Shown in pieces: positions 10,888 to 39,092 of a DNA stretch of 49,795 nt. The position numbers and the translations under genes were made by a program. Origin of the DNA: an uncultured Acidimicrobiaceae bacterium (GTDB taxonomy: Bacteria; Actinomycetota; Acidimicrobiia; Acidimicrobiales; RAAP-2); the NCBI GenBank assembly GCA_963977795.1, contig CAXBRB010000001.1, positions 1-49,795 of the forward strand. The letters are read 5' to 3'. The notes under the pieces were generated by a model, which saw only the letters and a program-made list of their open reading frames with translations, made no database searches and was not told where the DNA came from. Numbering within the stretch: the stretch's first letter is position 1; each line of letters begins with the position of its first letter.

Positions 10888-11425
10888 TGGCCAGGAGTCG
10901 CTGGACGATGTCGGCCAGCAGTGGATACGAGGCCGGCTCCTGTTGGGCGACCCGGCGCAAGCCGTCGGCCAGGAGTTCCGGGGACGGAGGGGCCGGCGCT
11001 CCGGCATCGCCGTGCAGCGCGGCCCCGGCCACGTCGGCCAGGACCGCGGCCAGCTCGACGTCCTCGAAGGTGAACGGCGCCCCGCCGGCCTTGTCGACGA
11101 CCTGGAGGACGCCGACCGACTGGTCCAGGTGGGTGCACGGGATGCTCATCACCGTGGTGGGCACGGTCGGCAGCCATCGGTGGACCCCGTCGTGGAGGCG
11201 GTCGTCCGCCGAGGGGATGGCGACGGCCATCGGCTGCCCGGACGCGAAGGCGAAGCCGGCCGCACCGTCGTCGACGGAGACCCGGCGGCCTCGGATCGAG
11301 GCCGCACCGTGCTCGGCGACGACCTCGAGCTCGCTTTCACGGGCGCAGAGGATCCACCCTGACGCCGCACCGGTCGAGGTGACCGCCGCGTCGACGACGG
11401 CTTGCAGTGCGTGCTGTACGGCCAC
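10880..11425 (-). CDS. GAF domain-containing protein
   Basis: 181 aa with a GAF-like pattern (GWILCARESELEVVAEHG...GFAFASGQPMAV...MSIPC....SVGVLQVVDK....FTFEDVELAAVLADVAG). AGGAG lies 7-8 nt upstream of the GTG at 11425. Confidence 0.7.
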   Translation of the reverse strand: MAVQHALQAVVDAAVTSTGAASGWILCARESELEVVAEHGAASIRGRRVSVDDGAAGFAFASGQPMAVAIPSADDRLHDGVHRWLPTVPTTVMSIPCTHLDQSVGVLQVVDKAGGAPFTFEDVELAAVLADVAGAALHGDAGAPAPPSPELLADGLRRVAQQEPASYPLLADIVQRLLASA

Positions 11426-14400: not shown

Positions 14401-14616
14401 GGGGGTGGGCACCCCGTTGACGGTGGTGTGACCCGGTTCCCCCTCCTCGGTGACGGCGAGACCCGTCGGCGTTACGTCGAAGCGCAGCCCGCGGTCCGCT
14501 GCCCGGTCCTCGGTGACGATGCGGCCGTCGGCGTCGAGGTCGAGGACGAAGGACCCGTCCACGCCGGTGTCCACCGTCGTCCCGTCCCCCGCCGAGTAGT
14601 AGAGCCGGTACTGCAT
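11446..14616 (-). CDS. Multidomain ABC exporter: FHA-like N-terminus, unknown ~220-aa region, type-I exporter TMD, canonical NBD, cNMP-binding-like C-terminus
   Basis: The TMD has six hydrophobic helices. The NBD carries GPTGSGKSS, LVAQDS, LSGGQRQR, LLILDEATSALD and SVSHR. The C-terminus reads PIFASLDDDVIEDLL...GSCFGISGLLGAASPAVLVA, a degenerate phosphate-binding cassette. The N-terminus reads ...HTTVNGVPT....V.PGDVVRNG.ATVVI, which is FHA-like. The ATG at 14616 shares one nucleotide with the kinase stop (TGATG). Confidence 0.85.
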   Translation of the reverse strand: MQYRLYYSAGDGTTVDTGVDGSFVLDLDADGRIVTEDRAADRGLRFDVTPTGLAVTEEGEPGHTTVNGVPTPGPVAVAPGDVVRNGAATVVIDAAVDGRPPMAAAITPFVVVRFHPDGPGAHVVADVARRAQLAVERLGDLGRGLRTRIPTVHLIDPTADPHHPDEILVDGSVVDPASCSVWTVVAGGAPPDPLERPLALCAGAALGAPPTSGPLLEAFGLWAAGSEDPTEALRTVADLPARDEASGELGAALQLSFVSYMVGRLGRQAVEHLLLAPTTEGGSQEEITDLEAAWRSHLAGSSGPGGGRSLLHLASTYLRPHWYRELELFCYTLVGLAFIAAFPFAFRTLIDSAIPSRQFSHVLAVIGVLLAIFAVSMAAQLRSTYLAAVVSTDVVRQIRSQMYDRLQHLPFGWFGEHEQGDVLSRIFSDVELVEQGLTQALRGGVAQVLSLTVSAVVMLTLDPVLGLITLASLPVVAVVYRLMTRGAQERSLAVQSETGGLLAIISEGYVGRAVIRAFGLEDRELHRMHEASSSLVRRQVRLALFGGYFQFSVSSIIILSRLVILLIGSWLVFHGHLTVGGLVAFVTVSAEAMGPVTELTTIGQQFQASTGAVSRIDEILEAPLEQPEVDLPPLEGVRQGIELRDVSFSYGAGHTTIDGVSFRVAVGERVAIVGPTGSGKSSILQLLLRFYQPDLGSILVDGVDLGTVDVSSWRRRIGLVAQDSFLFNASIAENIRMGRPDATDAEVEAVIAAVDLGAFVSELPDGVSTEVGEHGSRLSGGQRQRLALARALLRDPDLLILDEATSALDARTERLISATLADAGRGRTVISVSHRLASIADYDRIVVLEDGRLVEQGRHDELLALGGLYATLWSEQSVIGASPAIRDDARAALASVPIFASLDDDVIEDLLPLMRSDELPAGTAQDDDGSVILFIRDGSATIQEPDFSGAPVAVGELSAGSCFGISGLLGAASPAVLVATEALPVLVLDGDAVHALGATHPSLAAALAGRSEPVVIPRSAQRLGRVTLGHSRPVQPLTPPGAADADPTPPLRSPSS

Positions 14617-15674
14617 CACGGCACCTCTGTCCGGGCGCGTCGCTCGACGGCCGGTCCGGACCGTCGGGCCCGGCCGGGACGGTCGATTCGCCCCCAGCTG
14701 TGGGACGGCGCCTGGGGGTCGGACCTGCCGCCGGGACCTGGGTGGTGCTGGCGGGAGCCCCGCTCGGTCACGGCGACCAGCTCGGGAGCTCCGTGGATCG
14801 GCACATCCGTCGCTGAGAGCCATCCGGCACCCCAGGCGTCGGTCGCCGCGCTGGCGAGGGCCAGGCCGAACGCCATCGCCGAGCTCGGGCGATCGCGGTG
14901 GTCGGTGCGCAGACCGAGCATCACGACCTCGGCAACTGCCTCGGGAAGCTCCGGGTTCTTGGTGCGCAGCGGATCCGGCTGCTCGTAGGCGTGCTGGTAC
15001 AGCAGGTCCATCGGGTCTCCGGTCTCCTGGAACGGGAGCTCGCCGCACAGGAGCTCGTAGAGGACGGTGGCGGCGGCGTAGACGTCGGCGGCCGGGGTGA
15101 TCACACCGTTCCACGTCTGCTCGGGGGCGATGTAGGCCGGAGTCCCGACGATCTCGGACGCCTCCCCGCCTGACGCTGTCGATGTCTCCGTGGTGGTGGC
15201 GATGCCGAAGTCCGTGACCTTGAGGGTGCCGTGCTGGTTGAACAGGAGGTTCTCCGGCTTGATGTCCCGATGGAGGATGCCCCGTCCGTGCGCAGCGTCG
15301 AGCCCGGTCAGGCAGGCGAGGAGCAGCGCCACCGACGTGCGGGCCGTCAGCCCGGCATCGGCAAACCGGCTCCACAGGGAGCCGCCGGCCAGGTTCTCCA
15401 TGAGGAGGAGGAAGACGCCGTCGTGCTCGACGAAGTCGTAGACGGGGACGATGTGCGGATGGTCCACTGAGGCCAGCAGGGTCGCCTCCGCCACGAAGCG
15501 CTCCCGTGCGGCGTCGTCGGCGGCGAAGGCCCTCGGGAGGAACTTCACCGCGACCTCGCGTCCGAGCCGGTTGTGGCGGGCGGCCAGGACGACGCCGAGC
15601 CCCCCACGGCCGATCTCGCCGGTCACCTCGTAGCCCGGCAGCGCCGCGGCGACCAGGGGCCGGTCGAGCATCAC
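14616..15674 (-). CDS. Hanks-type Ser/Thr protein kinase, cytoplasmic, no TM segment
   Basis: GEIGRGGLGVV (P-loop), VAVK, HRDIKPENLL, DFG and GTPAYIAPE. GGGAGG lies 5 nt upstream of the start. The C-terminal ~75 aa are low-complexity. Confidence 0.9.
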   Translation of the reverse strand: MMLDRPLVAAALPGYEVTGEIGRGGLGVVLAARHNRLGREVAVKFLPRAFAADDAARERFVAEATLLASVDHPHIVPVYDFVEHDGVFLLLMENLAGGSLWSRFADAGLTARTSVALLLACLTGLDAAHGRGILHRDIKPENLLFNQHGTLKVTDFGIATTTETSTASGGEASEIVGTPAYIAPEQTWNGVITPAADVYAAATVLYELLCGELPFQETGDPMDLLYQHAYEQPDPLRTKNPELPEAVAEVVMLGLRTDHRDRPSSAMAFGLALASAATDAWGAGWLSATDVPIHGAPELVAVTERGSRQHHPGPGGRSDPQAPSHSWGRIDRPGRARRSGPAVERRARTEVP

Positions 15675-15858: not shown

Positions 15859-18336
15859 TCAGGAAGCCGAGCGGAGGCACATGGTCATCGGTTCGGGGAG
15901 GTGCTCGAAGAGCTCCCAGCCGGTCCACGGCGGGATGCGGAACCCCTGCTCGTCAGCGGTGAGCACCGTCTCGAACATCCGCACGGCGCCGGAGAGCCAG
16001 AACAGCTCGGAGCCAGCGTCCCCGCGGAGCACGGCGAGGAGCGCCTGGCCCGAGAGGTGCACGACGAAGCTGGCATCGGGGTGGGGCGTGGGACGAAGGA
16101 CGAGCTCGGCCGGTCGGAAGTCGATCGAATAGGTGAACCGGCGTCCACCCCCGACGTGGACGGTCGCCTGCCAGACCACCCCCCACTGCTTCCACGGGGT
16201 CAGGTCCATAGAGGACACGTAGGCGGAGAAGCGGGTGGTCAGGAACGTGTCGAGGAGGGTGGCGAGCTCGGCGATCTCGCCCTCGTCGACGCCGGGGAGC
16301 GTCGAGGTGTCGACAGGTTCGAACTCCTCGCTCGATCCGTTCCCGCCGCCGTCGACGACGACCGGCGAGGATGCCCGGCGGACATCGACCTGTCGTCCGT
16401 CGATGTGCACCGAGTCCCCGGGTCGGAGGACGCCGGCCCGTCCGTGGCCGAGCCGGCGTTCGAGCAGCCGGGCGATCCGGTCGTCACGGAGCGGGGCCAC
16501 GTACCGGTTGGCCCAGGCGGCCTCGGCGCAGTAGGCCAGGCCCCAGAACGACGGGAAGACGAAGCCTGGATCGGTGGCGCAGGCCGCCTCGAGCCAGTCC
16601 ACGACCGACGCCCGCTCGTCATGGCTGACGCCGAGTCCCCGCTGGGTGCTCCACAGGGCCGTGCCCGGTTGGAAGTGGGCCGCCACGCAGCCCATCGGCC
16701 CGAGCTCGTCGCGCAGCCGGGCCCCGACCCCCGGTCGCACCAGGGAGTCCGACACGTGCCAGTACGAGCCGTTGCCGCTCCGGATCACGACGCCGAACTC
16801 GTCCAGCTCGGCATCGGAGGGAGTGGCGGTGATCTCGACGTCGTCGTCCTTCCACCTGTCCCAGGGAGCGAGCGGATGGACGTCGGTGAATCCGAGTCGG
16901 TGGACGGTTGTCAGCAGGTAGTCGTCGTGCGGGGCGAGCACCGTCGCCGACCGTGGAAGCGAGGTGAGCGAGTCGGGGTGGAAGTGATCGAGATGCTGGT
17001 GCGTCAGGACGATGTGGGTGATCTCGGCAAGTTCGCCGTGCGCGAACGTCCGACGCGGCCGGAACTCGACCGTCCCCGACCCGATGACCGGAGCGAACAC
17101 CGGGTCGATGATGATCCGGCGTCGCTCGGTATCGACCAGGGTCGTGGCGTGGCCCGCCGCCGTCACTGTCAGGGACCCCGACCGCACGGCGGCCGGCAGC
17201 GTGCCGACCGACTCCCCGTGGGCGATCATCCGAGCCACCGTTTCGGGAGCATGCTGTTCGGCGATGGAGGCGGCGACGGCTGCTGCCGAGCGTCGGCCTG
17301 AGTCGCCGGAGCGCAACCGGATGGCCTCCACGAGCGCCCCGGGATCGGGCCCGGTGGCGTCGAGGATGGTGCAGGCTCCGGCCGCGGCGACCGCATCGGA
17401 CAGGAGCTGCTGGAACGGGCTGCACGGCAGGAGGACGAGGGGGACCCCCGAGGAGAGCGCACGGAGGACGGGGACGGGGTCGCCGTGGGTGACGACCACG
17501 TCCGGCGCCTCCTGCACGGCCGTCATCTCCGTGCCGTCCTCCTGGCGCGAGGCGAGCGAGGTGCGCTCGAGGGTGGTCGTGGACAGGCGGATCCCGTAGC
17601 CGCCGGCGTGCAGGGCCCCGACGGTGCGGGCGACCATCGGTGTCAGGTCGGTGGAGGTCAGCCCGAGATCGACCAGGACGGTCGGCGGGGTCCGTCCGTC
17701 CTCCGGTGCAGGAGCGCGGCGCTCGGGCTCAGGGGTGCAGCGCATCGGGATCGTCACCCCGGGAGCTTCGACGCCGTTGCGCAGCAGACGGGGGCGGATG
17801 TCGACGTAGGGGTGCGCGTAGAGCCCTGCGTGGGGTTCGGGCTCCAGGCCCCAGGTCCTCCACAGCGGAGCGACGGCGTCGGATGCTGCTGCCGTCCACT
17901 CGGTGGGGAGCACGGGCCCGCAGCACACCGACCGGACGCCGGCCAGACGGGCGGCCAGCGGAGCGGCCAGGGCGCACGGGTCGTGGGCCACCAGCTCGAA
18001 CCCCCCGTCGGCCACGAGCCGGATCAGGTCGGCTGCAGATGCCGGTGCCATGACCCCGCCGAAGAGGTGGGCCATCGAGAAGGCGCCGCGCTCGTTCCGG
18101 TCCAGCGACGCCAGGTCCGGATGGTTCCGGAGGTACTGCTGCCGGGCCTGCTCGGCGGGCCAGCCCACAGCGGTCCAGGATCCTGCCCCGGCGTCTGTCG
18201 GAGTGTCCGGCGGTCCGGCGAACTCGACGGCGTGGCCGAGCTCGGCGAATGCACCCGCCAGGGTGTCGAGAGGCCGCAGCAGCTCGGGCCCGCCTGCGGA
18301 GACGAAGAGGACGCGCACGGTGGGCTGATGGTACAC
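15859..18336 (-). CDS. Fusion protein: GT1 (MGT-type) glycosyltransferase-like N-terminal half, MBL-fold metallo-hydrolase domain, C-terminal SCP2-like region
   Basis: The N-terminus VRVLFVSAGG...LGH.V and the overall layout resemble GT-B glycosyltransferases. The donor motif is divergent (THGDPVPVLRALSSGVPLVLLPCSPFQQ). The MBL motif is VLTHQHLDHFHPDSL. The C-terminal ~180 aa (LSGQALLAVLRGDAGSELFWLSGAVRM) look SCP2-like. The start may instead be the GTG at 18318. Confidence 0.75.
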   Translation of the reverse strand: MYHQPTVRVLFVSAGGPELLRPLDTLAGAFAELGHAVEFAGPPDTPTDAGAGSWTAVGWPAEQARQQYLRNHPDLASLDRNERGAFSMAHLFGGVMAPASAADLIRLVADGGFELVAHDPCALAAPLAARLAGVRSVCCGPVLPTEWTAAASDAVAPLWRTWGLEPEPHAGLYAHPYVDIRPRLLRNGVEAPGVTIPMRCTPEPERRAPAPEDGRTPPTVLVDLGLTSTDLTPMVARTVGALHAGGYGIRLSTTTLERTSLASRQEDGTEMTAVQEAPDVVVTHGDPVPVLRALSSGVPLVLLPCSPFQQLLSDAVAAAGACTILDATGPDPGALVEAIRLRSGDSGRRSAAAVAASIAEQHAPETVARMIAHGESVGTLPAAVRSGSLTVTAAGHATTLVDTERRRIIIDPVFAPVIGSGTVEFRPRRTFAHGELAEITHIVLTHQHLDHFHPDSLTSLPRSATVLAPHDDYLLTTVHRLGFTDVHPLAPWDRWKDDDVEITATPSDAELDEFGVVIRSGNGSYWHVSDSLVRPGVGARLRDELGPMGCVAAHFQPGTALWSTQRGLGVSHDERASVVDWLEAACATDPGFVFPSFWGLAYCAEAAWANRYVAPLRDDRIARLLERRLGHGRAGVLRPGDSVHIDGRQVDVRRASSPVVVDGGGNGSSEEFEPVDTSTLPGVDEGEIAELATLLDTFLTTRFSAYVSSMDLTPWKQWGVVWQATVHVGGGRRFTYSIDFRPAELVLRPTPHPDASFVVHLSGQALLAVLRGDAGSELFWLSGAVRMFETVLTADEQGFRIPPWTGWELFEHLPEPMTMCLRSAS

Positions 18337-18344
18337 AGGGAGGC

Positions 18345-20327
18345 GTGCACGTGGCTCTGCTGTTCCCCCCGGTCGTGGACCCCCGGGGGCCTCATCTGGC
18401 GATCCCGTCCCTAGCGGCGCACCTGCGGGCGTCAGGGGTGCGCACCACGGTTCGGGACCTGAACGTCGAGGGCCTGTGGGCGTTGACCGAACCCGAGGCG
18501 CTGGAGGACCGGGTCGACGAGCGCACGGCGGCGGCCGTGGCCCGGGCCCGGTCGGTGCTCCGGGACCCCGAAGCGTTCTACGACCCCGATCAGCTGGCGG
18601 CGGCCCGGGCGGCCCTGGCGGCGGCGTGCACTGCCTGGAGCGACCCGGCCGGACGCGTCCGCTATCAGGCGATGGGTGCCGCCTATGACGTGGACGGCTG
18701 CGATCCGACCCGTCTGGCCGACCTGATCGCCGTCACCGCCGACCGATCCACCAATCTGTTCGACGGGCTCTGGCGTTCGGAGCTCCTCCCAGCCCTCGCC
18801 GAGGACCGGCCCGATGTCATCGGCATCTCCATCCTCAACCGTCAGCAGATCATCCCCGGTCTCCACCTCGCCCGCATGCTCCACGAGGCCGGGCACGTGG
18901 TGGCCATCGGCGGCACGGTGTTCGCCAAGTTCGCGCCCGAGCTCATGCGACGGCCGGCGTTCTTCTCGACGTTCTGCCGCGCCGTGGTCCCCTACGAGGG
19001 GGAGCACGCCCTCCTGGAACTCGTCCGGTCCGTGTCCGCCGGCGGGACCGGCGAAGGCGTCGCCAACACGCTGGTGCTCGGTCCGTCGGGAGCCGTCGTC
19101 GCCGGCCCGACCATGGTCGAAGAGGTCCCGCACCTGCCCACGCCCGACTTCGACGGCCTGCCCCTCGACCGGTACCTTGCGCCACACCTCGTGCTGCCGA
19201 TCCTGACGGGCAAGGGGTGCTACTTCAACCGGTGCAAGTTCTGCGACATCCCCGCCATCAACCGGATCTCCCCCCGGGCTTACCGGATGCGCCCGGCGGA
19301 TCAGGTGGCCGCGGATGTCGTCGCCCTCCATCGACGCCACGGCGCCCGGCACTTCGAGATCACCGACGAGACCCTCTCGCCGGCGTTCCTCCGCAAGCTC
19401 GGGCGCGCCCTTGCGGAGATCGACGGGGGTCCTGAGGTGCGAGCCCGATTCGTCGGCTACGCCCGATTCGAGCCCGGCTTCACCCCGGAGGCCTGCGCTG
19501 AGCTCTACGCCATGGGCGTGCGGAAGCTGTACTTCGGGTTGGAGTCCGGATCCCAGGTGATGCTCGACCGGATGGACAAGGGGATCCGCCTTCCCGTCGT
19601 GCGCACCGTGCTCCGCAACTGCGTCGAGGCAGGCATCGCCGTGCACCTGTTCTCGATCATCGGCTTCCCGGAGGAGACCGAGGAGCTGGCGGCCGAGACA
19701 GTCGGCTTCCTGCTCGAGGAGTCGGACACGCTCGCCGACCCCCGCAACACCTTCGACGTCCACCCGTTCGGCCTCGACCTGCGCACCGACTACGCCGACC
19801 AGGCTGACGAGTTCGGTGTGGACATCGACCGGGTGGTCCTCCGCACCCAGGACTTCCCGATCAGCGTCTCACGGTGGGTCAACCGCCGGGGGATGGATCC
19901 TGCCCAGGTCGCCGATGTGCTCGACCGGGCCGTGGGCTCGCTGCGGGAACGGTACCGGTCCTCGGGGCGGAACTTCCCGGACCAGCAGTTCCCCGGGTTC
20001 GAGGAATACGCCGTGCTCTACCTGGACCGCTACGAGGACGTCCCGTTCCTCCACCGGCTCAGCCTTCCTGAGCCCGACGACCCCCAGCGCTACTCCATCG
20101 AGTGGGCGGAGGACATCGAGCTCTCGTCGGAAGGTGCAGACGCCTGGAGCGTGCAGACGCGGTTCGGATCGTGCTCGGTCGGGGCCGACGAGCTGCGCGC
20201 CCTGGCGCCGTCCCGGCCGGGACAGCCGGTGGCCGGCCACCGCGCGGCCTGGGCAGATTCCGGTGTGGCGATGGCCACCGTGGACGGGCTCATCGCCATC
20301 CGGGCGCTCCTCCTCCGTCCGGCCTGA
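18345..20327 (+). CDS. B12-binding domain radical SAM enzyme (class B rSAM)
   Basis: The N-terminal half looks like a B12-binding domain (VALLFPP...PSLAAHLRASG, DVIGISIL....I.....LARMLHEAGH.VAIGG). The cluster motif GKGCYFNRCKFCDIP lies at nt 19218-19244. The GTG at 18345 is preceded by AGGGAGG at 18337-18343. Confidence 0.85.
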   Translation: MHVALLFPPVVDPRGPHLAIPSLAAHLRASGVRTTVRDLNVEGLWALTEPEALEDRVDERTAAAVARARSVLRDPEAFYDPDQLAAARAALAAACTAWSDPAGRVRYQAMGAAYDVDGCDPTRLADLIAVTADRSTNLFDGLWRSELLPALAEDRPDVIGISILNRQQIIPGLHLARMLHEAGHVVAIGGTVFAKFAPELMRRPAFFSTFCRAVVPYEGEHALLELVRSVSAGGTGEGVANTLVLGPSGAVVAGPTMVEEVPHLPTPDFDGLPLDRYLAPHLVLPILTGKGCYFNRCKFCDIPAINRISPRAYRMRPADQVAADVVALHRRHGARHFEITDETLSPAFLRKLGRALAEIDGGPEVRARFVGYARFEPGFTPEACAELYAMGVRKLYFGLESGSQVMLDRMDKGIRLPVVRTVLRNCVEAGIAVHLFSIIGFPEETEELAAETVGFLLEESDTLADPRNTFDVHPFGLDLRTDYADQADEFGVDIDRVVLRTQDFPISVSRWVNRRGMDPAQVADVLDRAVGSLRERYRSSGRNFPDQQFPGFEEYAVLYLDRYEDVPFLHRLSLPEPDDPQRYSIEWAEDIELSSEGADAWSVQTRFGSCSVGADELRALAPSRPGQPVAGHRAAWADSGVAMATVDGLIAIRALLLRPA

Positions 20328-20391
20328 CCGAGACAGCCTCGGGTCGGCGGCAGGACCGTGCTGAGGCGGGCGGATGCCGCCGGCGGGACGC

Positions 20392-20445
20392 TTGACTGCT
20401 GAAGGCGCTTGCCAGACACTGTCGGAGTGCTGGCGCCGTCAGCAC
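20392..20445 (+). promoter_or_regulatory. Putative promoter (TTGACT-17 nt-GACACT) followed by a 19-nt near-perfect palindrome, upstream of precursor A1
   Basis: -35 TTGACT at 20392-20397 and -10 GACACT at 20415-20420. Palindrome GTGCTGGCG-C-CGTCAGCAC at 20427-20445 has one mismatch. The same elements recur with the same spacing before A2, although the spacer sequences differ. Confidence 0.45.
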
Positions 20446-20482
20446 GTACTGCAGCAGCACACGATGGAGAGGAGCGCCGCAG

Positions 20483-20740
20483 ATGGCGGAGGAGCACGAG
20501 GGTGGTGTCGTCCTGCGGGGCGACGACGGATCGCTGTACTTCATCCGGGAGTCGACGCTTGCGGCCTGCAAGGCCGAGGGCGAGTTCGTTGACCGGGTGA
20601 ACGAGATGGTGGAGGGGAGCGAGGTCGAGGGGTACGCCCTCACGACGACGTCGCTGAGCACGGTGACCACGGTGTCCTCGACGTCGACGTCGACGCCGAC
20701 GGTGAAGCCGGCGGGCACCACCATGATGTGCCCCTGGTGA
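20483..20740 (+). CDS. RiPP precursor peptide A1 (85 aa): ~52-aa leader plus Ser/Thr-rich core ending MMCPW
   Basis: MAEEHEGGVVLRGDDGSLYFIRESTLAACKAEGEFVDRVNEMVEGSEVEGYA / LTTTSLSTVTTVSSTSTSTPTVKPAGTTMMCPW. 18 of the last 33 residues are Ser or Thr. RBS GGAGAGGAG is present. The gene is adjacent to the modifying enzymes and has a paralogue 422 nt downstream. Confidence 0.8.
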   Translation: MAEEHEGGVVLRGDDGSLYFIRESTLAACKAEGEFVDRVNEMVEGSEVEGYALTTTSLSTVTTVSSTSTSTPTVKPAGTTMMCPW

Positions 20741-20810
20741 TCGCCGACTCGTGACTGCCGGACGGCCGAGAAGGACTTGCCGTGGCTGGCGGATGCCCCC
20801 GGCAAGACGC

Positions 20811-20864
20811 TTGACGACAGGAAAGATCTGTCGGACACTGTGGGGGTGCTGACGCCGTCAGCAC
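20811..20864 (+). promoter_or_regulatory. Putative promoter (TTGACG-17 nt-GACACT) followed by a perfect 9-1-9 palindrome, upstream of precursor A2
   Basis: -35 at 20811-20816 and -10 at 20834-20839. Palindrome GTGCTGACG-C-CGTCAGCAC at 20846-20864. Confidence 0.45.
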
Positions 20865-20904
20865 TTCAGTACGTGGCAGCACACGACGGAGAGGAGCACC
20901 GCAG

Positions 20905-21156
20905 ATGTCGGAGGAGCAAGAGGGTGGAGTCGTCCTGCGGGGCGACGACGGTTCGCTGTACTTCATCCGGGAGTCGACGCTTGCGGCCTGCAAGGCCGAG
21001 GGCGAGTACGTCGACCGGGTGAACGAGATGGTGGAGGGGAGCGAGGTCGAGGGGTACGCCTTGACGACGACGTCGCTGAGCACGGTGACCACGGTGTCGA
21101 CGATTACTCCGACGTCGGTGAAGACGTCCATGACCACGGTCATGTGCCCCTGGTGA
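20905..21156 (+). CDS. RiPP precursor peptide A2 (83 aa), paralogue of A1
   Basis: MSEEQEGGVVLRGDDGSLYFIRESTLAACKAEGEYVDRVNEMVEGSEVEGYA / LTTTSLSTVTTVSTITPTSVKTSMTTVMCPW. The leader is 49/52 identical to A1. 17 of the last 31 residues are Ser or Thr. Confidence 0.8.
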   Translation: MSEEQEGGVVLRGDDGSLYFIRESTLAACKAEGEYVDRVNEMVEGSEVEGYALTTTSLSTVTTVSTITPTSVKTSMTTVMCPW

Positions 21157-21186
21157 CAGCCGCACGGTCCTGAACACAGGACGGCG

Positions 21187-21220
21187 GACGATGGCCCGGC
21201 CTTCCAGCCGGGCCATCGTC
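21187..21220. terminator. Bidirectional terminator hairpin between the convergent precursor genes and tfuA
   Basis: Perfect 14-bp stem GACGATGGCCCGGC / GCCGGGCCATCGTC with a 6-nt loop. A smaller hairpin GTCCTG-AACA-CAGGAC lies at 21167-21182. Confidence 0.7.
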
Positions 21221-21231
21221 GCGTACAGCAG

Positions 21232-22356
21232 TCAGGCGCCCTGGTCCCCTTCGGCGCCAGGGATGGCGTCGCGCAGGCGGGCTGTCGAGATGCGCAGCTG
21301 ATCGGCCATCAGCGCATCGATCTCGAAGCGGTGCTGCATCTGGAGCTTCTCGACCAGCACCGAGTCGATGATGAAGGAGAGCAGCGCCTCGTCGCTGATC
21401 CCCTCGGTCCGGCACCAGGACCGGAGGGCGTCGTCGTCCTCGAGGGCGTGGGTGGACCGGAACCGGGCCAGCTCATCGGCGAGCTCCTCGTTGGACACCG
21501 GGAGCGGCAGGGCGGACGCCCGCTGCCGGGCCAGGAGGCGCAGCAGGATCTTCTTGCGCATGACCGGCACCGTGTCGGTGCCCCGGAGCGGGGCCGGGTC
21601 GTCGAGCCGTCCCCCGGCCCGGGCGAGGTCGACCTCCACCTCCAGGTCGTGGAGGAAGACGGTGCGCTCGACATCGACGGGTCGTGCGGGTCGCGCCAGC
21701 TGGTCGACCGGCGTGGCGGCGACGAGCTCGAGCACCGACAGCGCGTCCTGCTCCTTCAGCCCCGGTCCATGTTCGGCGGCGAACCGCCGGAGCCGTTCGG
21801 CGGCTTCCGGCGGGAGGCCGGCTGCCTCGATGGCGGTCACCAGGTGCCGGTCGGGGAACGCAATCGATCGGGCGGCATCGACGAGGGCGTCACGTTCCCG
21901 GTCGTCGATCGCCCCGGAAGCATGGGCGCCAGTGAAGAGGTGCCGGAGGTCGACGAGGGCGTGGGACAGGGAGCGGTAGCCGGCGTCGGCATCGGCGTGG
22001 GCCACGGCCACTTCGTCGTCGTCCTCGATGGCACCGGTGCGGAACCACTCGAACACGGTCCCGTGTCCGATCATCCCGAACTGGTGGAGCTCGGCGGCGC
22101 GGAGCGCTCCCATGCTCGCCGCGCCCAGGACGGGGACGCCCGTGCTGATCGCCTGCAGGATCTCCTTGTGCCAGACCGACGGGACGAGCTCGAAGAACCC
22201 GTCGATGATCACCAGCGCAGCGGGCTCGTCGTACAGGGCCCGCAGGACGTCACCCTGGGACACCGGCGGATGGAGGACGGCATCCGGGACGATGGATCGG
22301 GCGACCGGGGCGGCGAGCGAGGGCCCGAGGAACACGTGGACACGTCCGACGCTCAC
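21232..22356 (-). CDS. tfuA: TfuA-like protein (YcaO partner for thioamidation)
   Basis: The N-terminus VHVFLGPSL.......PDAVLHPPVSQGDVLRAL...ALVIIDGFF....SVWHKEIL.A...GV.VLGAASMGALRAAEL is characteristic of TfuA. The GTG start overlaps the ycaO stop (GTGA). Confidence 0.85.
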   Translation of the reverse strand: MSVGRVHVFLGPSLAAPVARSIVPDAVLHPPVSQGDVLRALYDEPAALVIIDGFFELVPSVWHKEILQAISTGVPVLGAASMGALRAAELHQFGMIGHGTVFEWFRTGAIEDDDEVAVAHADADAGYRSLSHALVDLRHLFTGAHASGAIDDRERDALVDAARSIAFPDRHLVTAIEAAGLPPEAAERLRRFAAEHGPGLKEQDALSVLELVAATPVDQLARPARPVDVERTVFLHDLEVEVDLARAGGRLDDPAPLRGTDTVPVMRKKILLRLLARQRASALPLPVSNEELADELARFRSTHALEDDDALRSWCRTEGISDEALLSFIIDSVLVEKLQMQHRFEIDALMADQLRISTARLRDAIPGAEGDQGA

Positions 22357-23630
22357 GGGGTGCCACCGCGGGCAGTGGACCGGGCCCGCTGACCCGGCCG
22401 GTACGAGGGGGTGGAGCTGGCGCCCTCGAGGCCGGGGACCACGACCCGGACCACATGGACGGGGAGGTCGTCCATGGTGAGGTCGACCACCACCGGCTCG
22501 TCGACTCCGACGGCGGCGAGCGCCGCGAGGACGGCGTCCAGGTCGTCGTCGACGGTGGCCCCGGTGACCGTAGGTGCATCGGTGAACCGGCGCCTCCCGG
22601 TCTGCTCCGCCAAGGCCTGGAAGTGGCGCAGGGCGTCCCCGTCCTGGGTGGCCCGGACCCGGGCCCGGGTCAGGTCGTCCCGGGCACCGGAGATCGCAGT
22701 GAGCCGGGACTGGGCTGCCTCGGTCAGGGCGCGGACCAGCGCGATGCCACGGTCCGGATGGGTCCCTGCCCCGTAGGCCGCCCCGATCGGGCGCATGTGG
22801 GGATCAGCGGACCGGTCGGAGATGACCACCTGGAAGGTGGGGATCGGAATGTCCCTCGTCACCTCCCAGCAGATCACGGCGATGTCGGCGTCGGCATACC
22901 GGGCCAGGAGGCTACGGGCGACGGGGTGGTCCACGCTCTCGAGGTCCACCCGGCGGGCCCCGGGACCGGCGGGGTCGGCGGCGTGGAGCGCACCGGCATC
23001 GCGTTCGATCAGCTCGCAGAGCGCGTGGAGCGCCGCCTCGGCACGGGTGTTGCCGGAGGCCAGGCCGCTGGAGTTGCGCGAGAAGCACCCGCTCCCCGGG
23101 TGCAGCGGCAGACGGGCATCGGTGTGGACCAGCTCGTAGGGGACCCAGACGGGCCTCCCGGTGCGCAGCTGCTGGCCCTGAGCCCAGGGGATGACGAGGT
23201 CGGCGTGCCAACGGGTGTCGGCGCTCAGTTGCAGCCGGCTCGGGTCCATGGGGGCCGGGCCGGTGTCGTCCGTCCCGTGGCGGAGCTCGGACCACGAAGC
23301 GTGGCGGACGGTCACGGCGTGCTGCTCGCCGTGCCAGAGCTCCACCGCCTCCATGAGGGCGGAGGCCCGGGCGTCGTCGAGCGTGACCCCCTTCCCCTGG
23401 GACACGGCGAGGGATCGGCTGTTGGGCCGCACGGCCATCACGACTGGGATGCCGATGCGGTCCAGTCCGGTCACCGGGGCCAGGCGGGTGATGCCGAACC
23501 GGTCCCAGAGGATCGGCCGGAGGAGATCGACCGTCTGGGCGGCACCCCGGCTCCGCTGGGAGCCGTCGCACTTGGGCGTGACCGGACCGAGCCAGGCACG
23601 CAGTGCCGACCCCGGCGCAGCGGAGGTCAC
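22353..23630 (-). CDS. ycaO: YcaO domain protein
   Basis: Motifs RIGIPVVMAVRPNSRSLAVSQGKG and LMEAVELWHGE, plus the ATP/Mg motif SSGLASGNTRAEAALHALCELIERDA. The GTG at 23630 overlaps the stop of the upstream SpaB_C gene (GTGA). The 23768 start would overlap that gene by 142 nt. Confidence 0.9.
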   Translation of the reverse strand: MTSAAPGSALRAWLGPVTPKCDGSQRSRGAAQTVDLLRPILWDRFGITRLAPVTGLDRIGIPVVMAVRPNSRSLAVSQGKGVTLDDARASALMEAVELWHGEQHAVTVRHASWSELRHGTDDTGPAPMDPSRLQLSADTRWHADLVIPWAQGQQLRTGRPVWVPYELVHTDARLPLHPGSGCFSRNSSGLASGNTRAEAALHALCELIERDAGALHAADPAGPGARRVDLESVDHPVARSLLARYADADIAVICWEVTRDIPIPTFQVVISDRSADPHMRPIGAAYGAGTHPDRGIALVRALTEAAQSRLTAISGARDDLTRARVRATQDGDALRHFQALAEQTGRRRFTDAPTVTGATVDDDLDAVLAALAAVGVDEPVVVDLTMDDLPVHVVRVVVPGLEGASSTPSYRPGQRARSTARGGTP

Positions 23631-24361
23631 GGCCGCACGGCCATGGAGCGCACGGTGGCCACGAAGAGGTCGTCCCAGTAGGGCAGTCCCATCTGATTGG
23701 ACAGGAAGAAGGCAGCCGACCGACACCAGGCCCGGGGGCCGGCGGTCAGCACCCCGGCGTCGGCGCACGCCCGCAGCCGAACCCCGATCTCACGGATCTC
23801 GGGGTGGTCGCCGTCGTCGGACCGGTCCGGAAGATGCCACGGTCGATCCCGCCCCGACGCCTCGGGACCGTCGGGCAGCGCGGCGAGGATCTGGGACCAC
23901 ACGTCCCATCGCTCGTCGTCGTCGGCGAGCGCGCCATCCAGGAGGGCGCCCAACGCACCCCGCCACAGGACAGCACGGTGCTCCGGCGCCGCGTCCTCAG
24001 CCAGCACGGCGACGGCGGCCCGGGCGTGCGCGTCGAGGAGCCCGTGAGCGAGCTCCATCCCCACGCTCCCGCCGAACTTGTGCTCCTCGGCCTCGTACGT
24101 GGTGAGGCGGAAGCTGCGGACCTGGTTGCGGGCCTCTGCCTCGGCCAGCCAGGGCACCAGCCTGGCCACCAGCGAAGCGCCGTCATCGGCCGTCTCGAAC
24201 CGCAGCCGCACCCCGGGCGGCTTGCGGACGAACCAGAACCGACGGAGACCACCCTGGGTCCCGAGTCCGGAGATCTCGTCCCGGAGCTCCGCCCACGGGA
24301 AGCAGATGGGCTCCACGCCCTGCTGGGCGAAGACTGCGCAGCTGATCTGGGTCCACGTCAC
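23627..24361 (-). CDS. Lantibiotic dehydratase C-terminal (SpaB_C / thiopeptide-type elimination) domain protein
   Basis: 244 aa. RRFWFVRKPPGVRLRFE resembles the FF.RY.dP.pHLRLR signature of the elimination domain, and EEHKFGG is also present. The start overlaps the upstream stop by 4 nt. Confidence 0.75.
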   Translation of the reverse strand: MTWTQISCAVFAQQGVEPICFPWAELRDEISGLGTQGGLRRFWFVRKPPGVRLRFETADDGASLVARLVPWLAEAEARNQVRSFRLTTYEAEEHKFGGSVGMELAHGLLDAHARAAVAVLAEDAAPEHRAVLWRGALGALLDGALADDDERWDVWSQILAALPDGPEASGRDRPWHLPDRSDDGDHPEIREIGVRLRACADAGVLTAGPRAWCRSAAFFLSNQMGLPYWDDLFVATVRSMAVRP

Positions 24362-26085
24362 GGACGTTCCCTCCAGTACGACGGGTCGTGCCAGATGGCC
24401 CCGATCTCGGCAACGTACCGGCGACCGCTCCCGTCGGGAACGCCGGAGGGGGGCACCTCGCTGATCACGAGGCGGGCCGTCCCCGGGGGGACCCCGTTGA
24501 GCGCGGCACGGACGGCCAGCGGCGAGGACGTCCGCACGGGCAGCATCGGCCCATGGGGATGAGGGTCCCAGCGCACGTGGACGGCATCTGGCCAGCGGTT
24601 CTCACCGACGAGAGACTGCCACAGGAGGTACTGGGCTGCGCCGGTGGCCGTGAGCAGGTCGTCGAGTCGGTCCCCGTCGACTGTCCACCGCTCGGGGGAG
24701 AGGATGGCGCCACCGGGGAGGGTGAGCCGTGGCAGGTGCTTCCAGGTGGACCGCTCGCGCGGGAGTGCGGGGAACCCGAAGCCGGGGAGCTCCCACCCGA
24801 GTGACGACGCCGTGAGGGCCAGCAGACGGGAGAGGGGGTCCCTCGTCCCGATGGCGGCCGTGGAGTCGTAGGCCAGCACGGCCCGCACCCCGTCCTCCAC
24901 GAGGAACGGGGGATCCACGGCGACCGAGGAGAGGCCGGCGGCATCGAGGACCCGATCGGTCAGCGGAGCGACGGGCTCGCTGGTCTGCGGGCGGAGGGGA
25001 TCAGCACCCACGAGGCCGACCACCTCCAGGGGCCACGAGCGGTAGAGGTCCCGCACGGCCCGGGCGACCGGTGTGCGGGTGGCCAGGACCCCGGGATGGG
25101 GCCGGGATCCCCCGATCCACACGCCGGCGTCCGAGGGGGTGCAGACCACGGTGCCTGCCGGTCCGCCCCGGAAGGTCGGCTCGATGGCCACGGTCATGGA
25201 GGGTGCGGCGGCGTGCGGGCCGATCTCGTCCGTCCACTGTGCGATGGCCCGGTCGACCGCTGCAGCGGGGATCGGGCGGAGGCCGAAGACGCCCCGGGTG
25301 GTGTCGGGCTCGGCCGGCTGTGGCGGATAGAGGGCACCGTCGGCGATCATGTCGATCGTGGCGGCCCGGAACTGCTCGGCCCACCCGCCCCAGAAGCGGT
25401 GCTGCTCCTCGATGGCCAGGCCGATCTCCTGGCGGAGCCCGGTGCTCCACGTGAACCGGCACCCCGGAGCCGACCGGTCGATCGACCAGTCGTCCGCTCC
25501 TGGACCGACGACGCCGTCATGGGCCCAGCCGCCGAACGGGGTTGCCCGGCCGGCGGCGCGCAGGAGGAAGCGGGTCGCCGTGTCCTCGATCTTCGTGGTC
25601 CGTGCCCGGCCGTCGTCACCGTGCTCCAACAGCCGGGCCCAGTCGCGCCCGGCGCCCGGCGATGCAGCCTGCAGTGCCGTGCGGAACCGCTCGTCGGCCC
25701 CCAGCGCGTGCAGCCGGGAGCGCTGACGGTCCAGCTCGTGCTGGTAGGCCTCGTCAAAATCGGCCGTCAGGTCGGCCAGGCGGTTCCGCCGCCTTCGGTC
25801 TTCCTCGGCCGTCGCTGGGAGGTCGGTGCCGGCGGGGAGCGGCTGGCGGCCTCGGAAGGCGGTGCGGCGGGCGTCAAGGAGGGCCCGTCGGGTGGTCCGG
25901 TCGGAGGTGCCGGGGATGACCTCGCCCAGGGAGTCGACGACGGCGCCGCGGGCGGCATCCACGGCGTGGCGCAGCTGGCAGATGGCCGCTCCAGCACTGC
26001 GGAGTACCGGCGCCTCGAAGTCCACGATCTCGTCGAGCGCCCATGCGGCGACCCGACCGCTGGCGAAGGGCAGGACCTTGGGCAC
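24358..26085 (-). CDS. Lantibiotic dehydratase N-terminal (LanB glutamylation-type) domain protein, compact (575 aa)
   Basis: The RFLLRAAGRATPFGGWA motif (R..TPFG..A) and the overall layout fit the LanB N-terminal domain. I chose the GTG at 26085 because the longer ORF extension is Arg/Pro-rich and antisense to a well-supported MBL gene. Confidence 0.75.
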   Translation of the reverse strand: MPKVLPFASGRVAAWALDEIVDFEAPVLRSAGAAICQLRHAVDAARGAVVDSLGEVIPGTSDRTTRRALLDARRTAFRGRQPLPAGTDLPATAEEDRRRRNRLADLTADFDEAYQHELDRQRSRLHALGADERFRTALQAASPGAGRDWARLLEHGDDGRARTTKIEDTATRFLLRAAGRATPFGGWAHDGVVGPGADDWSIDRSAPGCRFTWSTGLRQEIGLAIEEQHRFWGGWAEQFRAATIDMIADGALYPPQPAEPDTTRGVFGLRPIPAAAVDRAIAQWTDEIGPHAAAPSMTVAIEPTFRGGPAGTVVCTPSDAGVWIGGSRPHPGVLATRTPVARAVRDLYRSWPLEVVGLVGADPLRPQTSEPVAPLTDRVLDAAGLSSVAVDPPFLVEDGVRAVLAYDSTAAIGTRDPLSRLLALTASSLGWELPGFGFPALPRERSTWKHLPRLTLPGGAILSPERWTVDGDRLDDLLTATGAAQYLLWQSLVGENRWPDAVHVRWDPHPHGPMLPVRTSSPLAVRAALNGVPPGTARLVISEVPPSGVPDGSGRRYVAEIGAIWHDPSYWRERP

Positions 26086-26094
26086 GGGTCCATA

Positions 26095-27546
26095 ATGACT
26101 GATGTGCGTCTGCAGCCGGATGTCGAACTCGTGGTGTCGATTGACGACGCAACGCCGTTCGGCTCGCCGATCGGTGCCCGACCCGAGCAGACCGTCCGGG
26201 AGGCGCTCGGGCCCATCGTCCGCCTCGTCGAGCGAGGGGGCCCCGATGCGGTCAGCCGGAGGAGCCGGGCCGCCCTCGTCGAGGCGGCAGGCCAGGAGGC
26301 GTTCCGGGCGATCGCTGCGCCGTCGGGCGGGGCCTGGGACGTCCGGGAGGCGTTCCGCTTCCCCGATCCGCTGCTGGCACGGCACGGAGCCCTCGATCTG
26401 GTCCGGGCCGGCACGAGCCTGCGGATCGGTGTCGAGCCCGGGCGGTGGGACCGTCTCCACGCCGCGCTGGCCCGTCCAGACATCTCCTCGCCTCTCGGGA
26501 AGGTGCTGTGGGAGCACGATCTTGTCGATGACGGGGAGAGCGAGACGGACCGGATGGACGCCGACCTGACCTTCGTCGGGCACAACACCGTGGTCGTCCG
26601 GGGCCCGCGGGCTTCGGTGATGGTCGACCCGTACTTCCGCCCAGCGGAGGCACGGTGGCCGACGGGCTACCAGCCGCTCGGTCCCGGTCAGCTCGGAGAC
26701 GTAGACGCCGTGCTCATCACCCACTCGCACCCTGACCACTTCGACCCGGCCAGCCTCCTGCGGATCGATCCGGACACGCGTGTGGTGGTCCCGGTGCTCG
26801 AGCGGGAGACCGTGCTGGCGGTCGATCTGGTCCGCCGCCTCTGGGAGCTGGGCTTCGCCGACGTGGTGGCGCTGGGATGGTGGCAGTCGATCACCGTGGG
26901 CGACCTCGAGATCACGGCGCTCCCCTTCTACGGGGAGCAGCCCACCGACGGGCCGGTGCTCCACCCCGAGATCAGGAACGCCGGCAACACCTATGTGGTG
27001 CGGACCCCGGGGTGGTCCGCCGCCTTCCTCGCCGATTCGGGTCGGGACCATCTCGGCGACGTCCGCGGCGTGGCCGACCGGTGGCACGCAGAGCATGGTC
27101 CTGTCGACGTCGTCTTCGGGGGGTATCGGGGCTGGTTCTCGTACCCGGCGGCGTTGGTGACCTCCTCGGTCGCCCGGTACCTCCCCTTCGTGCCCCCGGA
27201 GCAGTGGCAGGTGCGCCAGCAGCTCATGAACGGGCCGTCCGAGCTGATCGATGCCGCCGAGCGGTTCGGCGCCCGGTGGGTGGTCCCCTACGCAGACGGC
27301 GGGGCACCTTGGTTCTGGGAGATCGGCCTGGGGCCACGGCTCGATGGAGACCCGAGGGAGTCGCCGTCGTTCGACCCCTTCCCGGAACGTGTCGTCGAGG
27401 CCGCCGCCTCCCGCATGGTCATGGGGGGCGGGTTCCCGATGACGGGCTCGGTGGATGTCGTGGTGCTCCGGCCGGGCGACGGCGTCACCGGGCTGCCTGG
27501 GGCGATGACGACGGTGCGGCTGGACGGGCACGCCTGGCCCTGGTGA
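26095..27546 (+). CDS. MBL-fold metallo-hydrolase family protein with a ~165-aa N-terminal extension
   Basis: VLITHSHPDHFDPASL (HxHxDH) follows LTFVGHNTVVV. It resembles the MBL portion of the 15859-18336 fusion protein. ATG at 26095. Confidence 0.8.
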   Translation: MTDVRLQPDVELVVSIDDATPFGSPIGARPEQTVREALGPIVRLVERGGPDAVSRRSRAALVEAAGQEAFRAIAAPSGGAWDVREAFRFPDPLLARHGALDLVRAGTSLRIGVEPGRWDRLHAALARPDISSPLGKVLWEHDLVDDGESETDRMDADLTFVGHNTVVVRGPRASVMVDPYFRPAEARWPTGYQPLGPGQLGDVDAVLITHSHPDHFDPASLLRIDPDTRVVVPVLERETVLAVDLVRRLWELGFADVVALGWWQSITVGDLEITALPFYGEQPTDGPVLHPEIRNAGNTYVVRTPGWSAAFLADSGRDHLGDVRGVADRWHAEHGPVDVVFGGYRGWFSYPAALVTSSVARYLPFVPPEQWQVRQQLMNGPSELIDAAERFGARWVVPYADGGAPWFWEIGLGPRLDGDPRESPSFDPFPERVVEAAASRMVMGGGFPMTGSVDVVVLRPGDGVTGLPGAMTTVRLDGHAWPW

Positions 27547-34735: not shown

Positions 34736-34906
34736 GAGCGACCCGGAGAGGCTACCCGATGATCGGGGTGGGCACCGCACGGGCGACGACGCTCCCGGCC
34801 GGAAGGGGACCGGCCCCTCCCGCGGTGACCGCACCCTCGATCGACCGCCGGATCACCCTCCCCGTACCCCCAATCCGGGGGTGGCCGCCGGTAGGCTGCA
34901 TCGGTC

Positions 34907-35563: not shown

Positions 35564-35612
35564 CCCTTCCCTCCGTCGTGCCCCCGGACACCAGAGCCAT
35601 GGCGGGGCCCCG

Positions 35613-36107: not shown

Positions 36108-36108
36108 C

Positions 36109-38993: not shown

Positions 38994-39092
38994 CCCCGGG
39001 CGGAGCCGGCCCCGCCCAGTTGTCCCGACCCACCGACCAGACCGAGACGAGCAGATGAGAACACCGGCAGCGAGCACAGGCGGACGTAGGCT

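Follow-up and report, generated by a model that had tools for sequence, protein, structure and literature searches.

The stretch of DNA considered here (the window, comprising 49,795 nucleotides of contig CAXBRB010000001.1 from an uncultured Acidimicrobiaceae bacterium) contains a putative biosynthetic system for a peptide that is synthesized ribosomally and modified after translation (a RiPP), whose core genes are packed between positions 15,859 and 27,546 (Table 1). As the window has a GC content of ~72%, genes were called by third-position GC (GC3) and open reading frame (ORF) structure; the calls match those made independently on the source contig (ENA metagenome assembly ERZ27299064), and domains were scored with Pfam and NCBIfam. 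Two small precursor genes, A1 and A2, lie between a gene for a B12-type radical S-adenosylmethionine enzyme (rSAM) and a convergent four-gene operon coding for the glutamylation (LanB_N) and elimination (LanB_C) components of a split LanB dehydratase, a YcaO protein, and a TfuA protein, with GTGA overlaps at all three junctions indicating translational coupling. The gene for a two-domain metallo-β-lactamase (MBL)-fold protein, MBL2, diverges from that for LanB_N, and a gene coding for a fusion between a glycosyltransferase family 1 (GT1)-like domain and a further MBL domain, MBL1, diverges from the rSAM gene. An initial annotation made from the sequence alone had described this arrangement, and our gene calls, reading of the junctions, and Pfam matches agree with it on the positions of the genes, the two precursors, the overlaps, and the divergent MBL and fusion genes; its assignments of a split LanB, YcaO/TfuA, B12-type rSAM, and two MBL proteins were likewise recovered in hidden Markov model (HMM) searches, that of LanB_N by means of a family profile.

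The two precursors are 74% identical to each other and match no Pfam or NCBIfam model. The leader of A1 (...VLRGDDGSLYFIRESTLAACKAEGE...EVEGY) is followed by the predicted core ALTTTSLSTVTTVSSTSTSTPTVKPAGTTMMCPW, while the core of A2 is ALTTTSLSTVTTVSTITPTSVKTSMTTVMCPW; as the initial annotation had it, more than half of the core residues are Ser or Thr (55%; 18/33 and 17/31 residues). The pair arose by a tandem duplication that took in the ribosome-binding site and ~120 nt of upstream DNA, and near-identical clusters (L012–L014) have a single precursor copy of the A2 type. The duplicated region includes a near-perfect palindrome, GTGCTG[GA]CGCCGTCAGCAC, at 20430–20448 and 20849–20867, ~35–55 nt before each precursor start, which could be an operator or a 5′-untranslated-region hairpin. 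A GC-rich hairpin, GATGGCCCGGC...GCCGGGCCATC, is seen at ~21190–21218 in the space separating A2 from the convergent tfuA gene. A scan for promoter and terminator consensus sequences around the precursors gave no match, which is unsurprising in DNA with 72% GC.

A profile of the precursors recovered just one locus from 185,579 species genomes, namely that of an Actinomycetes metagenome-assembled genome (MAG; L002), and 109 matches at E <= 1e-3 from 1.84 billion representative proteins (~100 precursor clusters, the matches including a few long proteins that are unlikely precursors). The family is defined by a leader with the consensus GGT-[IV]-LRG-x-DGSLYFIRDE-[IV]-LEACKV ... EVEGF and a motif near the C-terminus of the core, S-T-[VIL]-M-C-[PC]-W, separated by a hypervariable region. 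Among the 94 members bearing the Met-Cys pair, a Thr is found two residues before it in 92, a Ser three residues before it in 64, and Val, Ile, or Leu directly before the Met in 80; the commonest endings are MCPW (43), MCCW (11), MCPWFC (11), and MCPG... (~10). The MCPWFC-ending subfamily, sometimes with a tail after the motif, includes the precursors of L007, L008, L009, L016, and L022. In the variable region, Ser and Thr make up a fraction of ~0.6 in the precursors of the window, the maximum for the family, against a median of 0.21, and the poly-Ser/Thr stretch is a local, lineage-specific elaboration. Given that only the leader and the motif are conserved and that Ser/Thr richness is an outlier, the family-defining chemistry must act on S-T-x-M-C-[PC]-W. 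Separately, Streptomyces sp. ADI95-16 (CP033582; L021, 20027–20308) encodes, in a cluster with MBL2, LanB, and LanC genes, a 93-aa candidate precursor whose leader differs and which has YTTMCTTF at an internal position, hinting that T-T-M-C may be the minimal shared element.

The gene set of the window recurs in relatives. The MAG locus L002 contains YcaO, TfuA, LanB_C, an MBL1 counterpart lacking the GT domain, a precursor, LanB_N, rSAM, and MBL2 in an order different from that of the window, and this reshuffling marks the set as a functional unit. The cultured Streptomyces sp. NPDC001750 (L018; GCA_042892615, contig JBIAUE010000011) has a precursor, rSAM, YcaO, TfuA, MBL, a fused LanB, and a 292-aa protein, with identities of 50, 46, 44, 47, and 32–37% to the window proteins; its recurrence there and in an unrelated MAG argues that the arrangement in the window is not due to chance. 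A metagenomic locus, L005, combines a precursor, MBL1, LanB_C, LanB_N, rSAM, MBL2, and a Trp-halogenase fusion, with no YcaO/TfuA genes within 20 kb. MBL2 has more than 500 full-length homologs with 45–59% identity, including those from cultured Actinomadura, Embleya, Nocardia, Spirillospora, and Streptomyces; the system is hence not the isolated oddity that it was initially taken to be. In nine neighborhoods of MBL2 homologs that we read, LanB parts are found in all nine and a precursor of the same family in eight, so that MBL2 accompanies LanB more constantly than any other partner in the family. YcaO/TfuA are absent from L005, L016, L017, L021, and L022; we considered this pair as class-defining and rejected it, as it is missing in L005 and in five of the nine MBL2-homolog neighborhoods. 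The family hence has three constant parts, viz., a precursor with the leader and motif, a glutamyl-tRNA-type LanB, either fused or split, and MBL2, whereas YcaO/TfuA, the B12-rSAM, the second MBL protein, and the GT domain are accessories that vary between relatives. Other accessories in the relatives are listed in Table 1. Among these, LanC fits lanthionine-type chemistry and makes the family a neighbor of the class I lanthipeptides instead of one remote from all known classes, and the Trp halogenase of L005 and the Trp prenyltransferase of L024 suggest that the Trp of the motif is kept in the product.

The initial annotation gave the MBL proteins no role. Sequence searches with MBL2 against solved structures (phmmer) recovered CmlA (4e-10) and FrsH (1e-8) as the best matches, and an AlphaFold2 model built from a 120-sequence alignment (mean predicted local distance difference test score, pLDDT, 95.7) retrieved the same two proteins in Foldseek searches (FrsH, 6.8e-21; CmlA, ~1e-18), with alignments spanning both domains (TM-score 0.55–0.59 over 570–590 columns) at a sequence identity of 16–19%. 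The next MBL folds, NAPE-PLD and UlaG, follow at ~1e-11 and align over the MBL domain alone, such that FrsH and CmlA outscore any hydrolase of the fold by seven orders of magnitude. Six residues of MBL2, H210, H212, D214, H215, E281, and D314, the first four of which form the HxHxDH signature, are invariant in the 120 homologs; E281 aligns with E377 of CmlA (mutated in PDB 5kil) and D314 with D403. We take the diiron ligands of CmlA to be the HxHxDH residues along with Glu377, Asp403, and Glu430. FrsH and CmlA are non-heme diiron β-hydroxylases that act on carrier-protein-bound amino acids in non-ribosomal peptide synthetase (NRPS) pathways (PMC7794379). Neither an NRPS nor a carrier protein is encoded in the window or in the nine MBL2-homolog neighborhoods. 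The predicted fold of MBL2 is that of the FrsH/CmlA diiron β-hydroxylases, and the model points to oxidation as probably being a part of the chemistry of the cluster.

LanB_N was the weakest of the enzyme assignments: its Pfam match (PF04738) covers profile positions 1–59 of 649 alone, single-sequence searches of the PDB with LanB_N and LanB_C gave nothing useful, and a word-index search among 5.8 billion proteins yielded only three LanB_N homologs. A profile from six relatives matched GodF and TbtB (~1e-12) over the N-terminal third, and a deeper one, including the full-length LanBs of cultured relatives, aligned over its positions 4–795 of 834 with TbtB (6ec7; 3e-18), and also with MibB (2.6e-12), which, by spanning the whole glutamylation domain, secures the predicted assignment. 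Its RxTPxGxW motif is invariant across the family, with the Arg and Thr of RxTP presumably being equivalent to R87 and T89 of NisB. The LanB_N of the window lacks ~285 residues found in relatives (residues 203–487 of the fused LanB of L018), but since the missing segment contains only a single near-invariant family column, the deletion appears to take out a variable region. LanB_C matches NCBIfam TIGR03891 above the cut-off (1.3e-18), and its family profile aligns with the elimination domains of MibB (844–949; 1.1e-9) and NisB (737–857); none of the clusters that we read has LanB_N without an elimination-domain protein.

The YcaO protein scores better with the NCBIfam model for McrA-glycine thioamidation (2e-64) than with the one for TOMM SagD (5e-39), and with no E1-like partner found in the window it appears closer to the thioamide-forming than to the azoline-forming type. 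In addition to its TfuA domain, TfuA has a family-specific C-terminal domain of ~110 aa (~residues 250–360; 21232–21990 in the window) with no Pfam match. This domain shares 38% identity (E = 6e-15) with the C-termini of the Amidohydro_2 proteins of the Actinomadura and Nocardia relatives L016 and L022; in L016, L020, and L022 the gene hosting it lies directly upstream of that for MBL2, and a role specific to this family in leader binding or docking is possible. The best NCBIfam match of the rSAM is to RiPP maturation rSAM C-methyltransferases (6e-24, below the cut-off), and orthologs in L002, L005, and L018 are 50–52% identical to it; from these matches we predict it to be a probable C-methyltransferase. 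MBL1 is a paralog of MBL2 (30% identical), with a GT1-like domain at ~residues 1–380, an MBL domain retaining HxHxDH (446–451), and a conserved C-terminal domain. Its MBL part is 42–44% identical to the products of the precursor-adjoining genes of L002, L003, L005, and L006, all of which lack the GT domain, and the fusion is found only in the lineage of the window. The GT-like domain aligns with SnogD (2.4e-4; residues 6–372) and reads THGDPVPV (17390–17470) where GT1 enzymes carry the glycine-rich nucleotide-sugar loop HHGGSGT. We also considered a tie between the GT domain and Ser/Thr-rich cores and set it aside, as the sole other Ser/Thr-rich precursor, P0025, sits on a 1.1-kb contig without informative neighbors. 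Across the 49.8-kb window, no LanC, LanD, E1-like/Ocin-ThiF partner, azoline dehydrogenase, or second SpaB_C gene was found in a tblastn search with the LanC of L017 and in Pfam scans covering 35 other high-GC3 ORFs, i.e., most but not every ORF, in keeping with the absence of LanC, LanD, and azoline machinery noted in the initial annotation.

Taken as a whole, we consider it fairly probable that the locus is a functional RiPP cluster, a derived member of a widespread actinobacterial family, and that its chemistry is as follows. The leader would be recognized by the tailoring enzymes, potentially aided by the domain common to TfuA and the Amidohydro_2 proteins of relatives. The split LanB would convert the motif's invariant Thr into dehydrobutyrine by dehydration and, in this lineage, probably dehydrate some of the upstream Ser/Thr residues too. 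The invariant Cys, at i+3 from that Thr, could then add to the dehydrobutyrine to give a methyllanthionine-type ring, a thioether formation that LanC would assist in some relatives. MBL2 would carry out an oxidation, probably a hydroxylation, on one of the motif residues, and MBL1 may act likewise; YcaO/TfuA would introduce one or more backbone thioamides, and the B12-rSAM would methylate an unactivated carbon. Finally, leader removal near EVEG-Y/F may fall to the S8 protease (9934–11007) and export of the product to the ABC system. We also entertain, as a distinctly unlikely variant, the possibility that MBL2 β-hydroxylates a motif residue other than Ser/Thr (e.g., Val/Ile or Met) and that LanB glutamylates and eliminates the new hydroxyl. 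This would explain the obligate pairing of MBL2 with LanB and, if true, would give a dehydro-amino acid, or a crosslink between such a residue and Cys, beyond ordinary LanB chemistry. Such a RiPP modification would be new, would define a class, and would be present in hundreds of actinomycete genomes.

Several observations weigh against the reading of the locus as a cluster with this chemistry. The position of MBL2 aligned with the presumed ligand E430 of CmlA is an invariant Arg (R345), and its metal site may therefore differ from that of CmlA; its oxygenase activity is a prediction from the fold. With no LanC in the window, ring closure would need to be spontaneous or to involve some other cyclase. 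The shortened LanB_N is not assured of activity, and an AlphaFold2 model of it from four sequences was unusable (mean pLDDT 43) and was kept out of the fold search. The B12-binding domain of the rSAM falls short of the Pfam cut-off (3.5e-7; 30.5 bits against 32.1), and its Cys motif, CYFN[RK]C[KR]FC (19218–19244; residues 292–300), has CX4CX2C spacing in place of the canonical CX3CX2C, as does that of its Streptomyces counterpart in L018 (residues 316–324). With its degenerate nucleotide-sugar loop, the GT-like domain may be non-catalytic. Some precursors of the wider family adjoin entirely different enzymes: that of L008 (2617–3048) has Amidohydro_2 and NTP_transf_5 genes as neighbors, while the enzymes of the window are all missing within 7 kb, implying that the leader and motif may serve another enzyme set. 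More generally, the product chemistry is something that we infer at every step.

An alternative, closer to the initial annotation, would have the Ser/Thr-rich core itself give rise to a long peptide with multiple dehydrations, thioamidation, and C-methylation, with LanB, YcaO/TfuA, and the rSAM as the class-defining enzymes and the MBL proteins as peripheral ones. The cores are indeed rich in Ser and Thr, the LanB, YcaO/TfuA, and rSAM genes are all present with translational coupling, and the GT-like domain and the Ser/Thr kinase are found only in this lineage, together with the Ser/Thr-rich core. We nevertheless regard this alternative as doubtful, because the richness is a family outlier, conservation lies in the leader and the S-T-x-M-C-[PC]-W motif, L005 keeps the LanB, rSAM, and MBL set while having a Trp halogenase and no YcaO/TfuA within 20 kb, and it is MBL2 that most constantly accompanies LanB. 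Hence, of the heavily dehydrated poly-Ser/Thr product that was first proposed, the Ser/Thr-rich cores are real but are a feature of one lineage, and YcaO/TfuA and the rSAM prove to be accessory rather than defining.

A second alternative, which we hold to be similarly improbable, takes the MBL proteins to be metallo-hydrolases, such as a leader/follower peptidase, an esterase resolving glutamylated intermediates, or a metal-dependent thiol-activating cyclase in place of LanC. Their Pfam families are of the hydrolase type, databases name them "MBL fold metallo-hydrolase" or "UlaG", the Arg at the E430 position is invariant, and most clusters of the family lack LanC, leaving the role of a cyclase vacant. 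Yet, the top matches in both sequence and fold are two characterized diiron β-hydroxylases aligned across both domains, MBL2 invariably has the Glu that stands in CmlA at the place of the usual motif-3 His, and two relatives possess LanC alongside MBL2; moreover, the family repeatedly includes further oxygenases, Cupin_8 and TauD, with TauD also found fused to MBL2, suggesting oxidative tailoring.

Peptide aminoacyl-tRNA ligases (PEARLs) lack an elimination domain. A pearlin-like pathway, with a scaffold peptide, a LanB-like protein acting as such a ligase (PEARLs are described in PMC11962472), and a C-terminal Trp or Cys converted into a small molecule that is then released, is very improbable: while Trp ends most precursors, relatives have Trp halogenase and prenyltransferase genes, LanB_N of the window is shortened, and the recurring amidohydrolases could free a product, an elimination-domain protein is present with LanB_N in every relative read and its gene in the window is translationally coupled to that of LanB_N, the motif is often internal (MCPWFC, MCPGTM...), the invariant Thr/Cys at i, i+3 fit dehydration and thioether chemistry, and two relatives encode LanC. 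The C-terminal Trp as a building block was rejected on the constant elimination domain and the often internal motif.

Returning to the three-part family with oxidative tailoring of the motif, the cluster would come closest to a pathway of the class I lanthipeptide or split-LanB kind, with tailoring akin to that of thioamitides and proteusins. With class I lanthipeptides (NisB- or MibB-type LanB with LanC; split, e.g., in the pinensin system) it shares the glutamylation and elimination domains, the Thr/Cys at i, i+3 in the core, and the S8 protease and ABC exporter genes alongside. Unlike them, it has no detected LanC (which two relatives do encode), an obligate MBL partner with the predicted CmlA/FrsH fold, a new precursor family, YcaO/TfuA, a B12-rSAM, and a shortened LanB_N. 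The N/C split is common to the LanBs of thiopeptides and goadsporin (TbtB/TbtC, GodF/GodG), and TbtB and GodF are the best solved-structure matches of LanB_N; however, our scans found none of the azoline-type YcaO with E1-like partner, dehydrogenase, or second SpaB_C pyridine synthase of those systems, and the YcaO of the window is paired with TfuA. Its adjacent YcaO-TfuA pair, closest to the McrA-thioamidation type, is a feature shared with thioamidated RiPPs (thioamitides, thiovarsolins, thioamidated thiopeptides, and nocathioamides), in contrast to which the pair is an accessory in this family. Unlike in thioamitides, no LanD/AviCys (aminovinyl-cysteine) flavoprotein, HopA1 lyase, or APH-type (aminoglycoside) phosphotransferase is encoded in the scanned ORFs, the sole kinase being a Ser/Thr kinase of the Pkinase type; further, the Cys is not C-terminal and the precursor is different. 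MBL2 has the two-domain fold, HxHxDH, and the Glu and Asp equivalent to E377 and D403 in common with the CmlA/FrsH hydroxylases; it differs from these NRPS enzymes in being partnered with a ribosomal peptide and LanB and in having the invariant Arg in place of the last carboxylate ligand. Finally, as in proteusins and RiPPs of the polytheonamide type, which combine C-methylation by a B12-rSAM with dehydration and hydroxylation, several tailoring enzymes, including a B12-rSAM and a putative oxygenase, would act on one leader-guided peptide, but here the leader is not of the nitrile hydratase-like (NHLP) type, the dehydratase is LanB and not LanM-like, and the oxygenase has a different fold.

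Leftward of MBL1, a Ser/Thr protein kinase gene, placed identically in L001 and L012, lies between the fusion gene and that for an ABC exporter, with its stop overlapping the start of the latter (Table 1). The exporter has an ~300-aa N-terminal extension and a C-terminal cyclic nucleotide monophosphate (cNMP)-binding domain, and is conserved beside the cluster in L012. The kinase could be regulatory or might conceivably phosphorylate the Ser/Thr-rich core; the second ATPase (8925–9869) is a probable export or regulation component; the S8 protease is, by analogy to LanP, a candidate leader peptidase, assigned to the cluster by its position alone; and the GAF protein is a possible regulator. As the GAF and S8 calls overlap, their start codons are uncertain. 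Parts related to cyclic nucleotides recur near the clusters: both ABC proteins of the window have cNMP-binding domains, with the GAF protein between them, and the relatives encode FHA-adenylate/guanylate cyclase proteins (L005, 8897–9877; L020, 3268–4224) or, in L024 (12311–13523), a cyclase along with a cNMP-binding protein, which suggests cNMP-gated export or regulation. In both divergent pairs, 18336/18345 (fusion/rSAM) and 26085/26095 (LanB_N/MBL2), the called start codons are 8–9 bp apart; either the promoters lie within the adjoining coding sequences or some starts lie farther downstream (e.g., GTG at 26025 for LanB_N). On the right-hand side, 34895–40901 codes for two FHA-domain proteins (one FhaA-like), a PP2C phosphatase, a penicillin-binding protein, and a PASTA-domain Ser/Thr kinase, an order that we take to resemble the actinobacterial fhaA-fhaB-pstP-pbpA-pknB block, and these housekeeping cell-division and signaling genes bound the cluster. 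Counting export, protease, and regulatory genes, the cluster probably extends over ~8.9–27.5 kb.

Table 1. Features of the putative cluster in the window, followed by domains and accessory genes in relatives (L numbers).
Feature	Position or locus	Strand	Basis and remarks
ABC-type ATPase with cNMP-binding domain	8925-9869	-	ABC_tran 1.3e-11, cNMP_binding 5.7e-18; start uncertain (ORF to 10124)
Subtilisin-like S8 serine protease	9934-11007	-	Pfam Peptidase_S8 2.8e-30
GAF-domain protein	10880-11425	-	Pfam GAF_2 1.4e-9; overlaps S8 call
ABC exporter, transmembrane and ATPase domains	11446-14616	-	ABC_membrane 4e-38, ABC_tran 2e-33, cNMP_binding 9e-5
Ser/Thr protein kinase	14616-15674	-	Pfam Pkinase 7e-49
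GT1-like/MBL fusion (MBL1)	15859-18336	-	825 aa; Pfam Lactamase_B_2 2.3e-10, EryCIII-like_C 6e-5
B12-type rSAM	18345-20327	+	Pfam Radical_SAM 2.9e-14
Precursor A1	20483-20740	+	85 aa; translation, family alignment, ribosome-binding site
Precursor A2	20905-21156	+	83 aa; translation, family alignment
TfuA	21232-22356	-	Pfam TfuA 3e-44, domain at residues 52-170
YcaO	22353-23630	-	Pfam YcaO 9e-82
LanB_C (SpaB_C-type elimination domain)	23627-24361	-	244 aa; Pfam Lant_dehydr_C 4.7e-15
LanB_N (glutamylation domain)	24358-26085	-	575 aa; Pfam Lant_dehydr_N 2.5e-10
MBL2 (two-domain MBL-fold)	26095-27546	+	Pfam MBL-family match 3.8e-13
TfuA-C-type domain in relatives	L016 9610-9972; L022 9653-9961; L002 5052-5477; L020 7572-8021		
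Accessory LanC	L017, L021		
Accessory Amidohydro_2	L016, L020, L022, L024		
Accessory TauD	L017, L020; L025		fused to MBL in L025
Accessory Cupin_8	L020		
Other accessory rSAM	L021, L022		
Accessory Trp prenyltransferase and GT	L024		

The literature that we searched describes neither the S-T-x-M-C-[PC]-W motif, nor the pairing of LanB with an MBL protein, nor a CmlA-like RiPP enzyme, although subscription journals are largely uncovered in this search and the absence is hence no proof; the supplements of the RiPPER, Malit, and Walker surveys have no match to MCPW, MCCW, LYFIR, or a lactamase Pfam family. In neither source did we find a characterized cluster with the same gene set, as the initial annotation had supposed. 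Its suggestion of an undescribed class stands in part: the system is unusual and we could find no description of it, but it adjoins the class I lanthipeptides and has relatives with LanC. We see the family as a variant of the LanB-dependent RiPPs, an earlier description of which may exist.

If the proposed interpretation is correct, an observation on 12 kb of metagenomic DNA opens up a large family, with more than 500 MBL2 homologs and ~100 precursor clusters, which pairs LanB with an oxygenase of the predicted CmlA/FrsH fold, a pairing that we found in no RiPP paper, around a sharply conserved heptapeptide motif. The CmlA/FrsH fold has so far been characterized in NRPS pathways only (PMC7794379), and a peptide substrate would extend its range. 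Streptomyces sp. NPDC001750, Actinomadura rupiterrae (GCA_024172125), Embleya scabrispora, and Nocardia sp. NPDC046473, all of them cultured, carry orthologous clusters, and the chemistry is therefore open to testing with no need to obtain the uncultured source organism. The modular accessories of the family, namely thioamidation, the B12-rSAM, LanC, Trp halogenation or prenylation, and TauD, would then constitute a natural combinatorial series on one scaffold.

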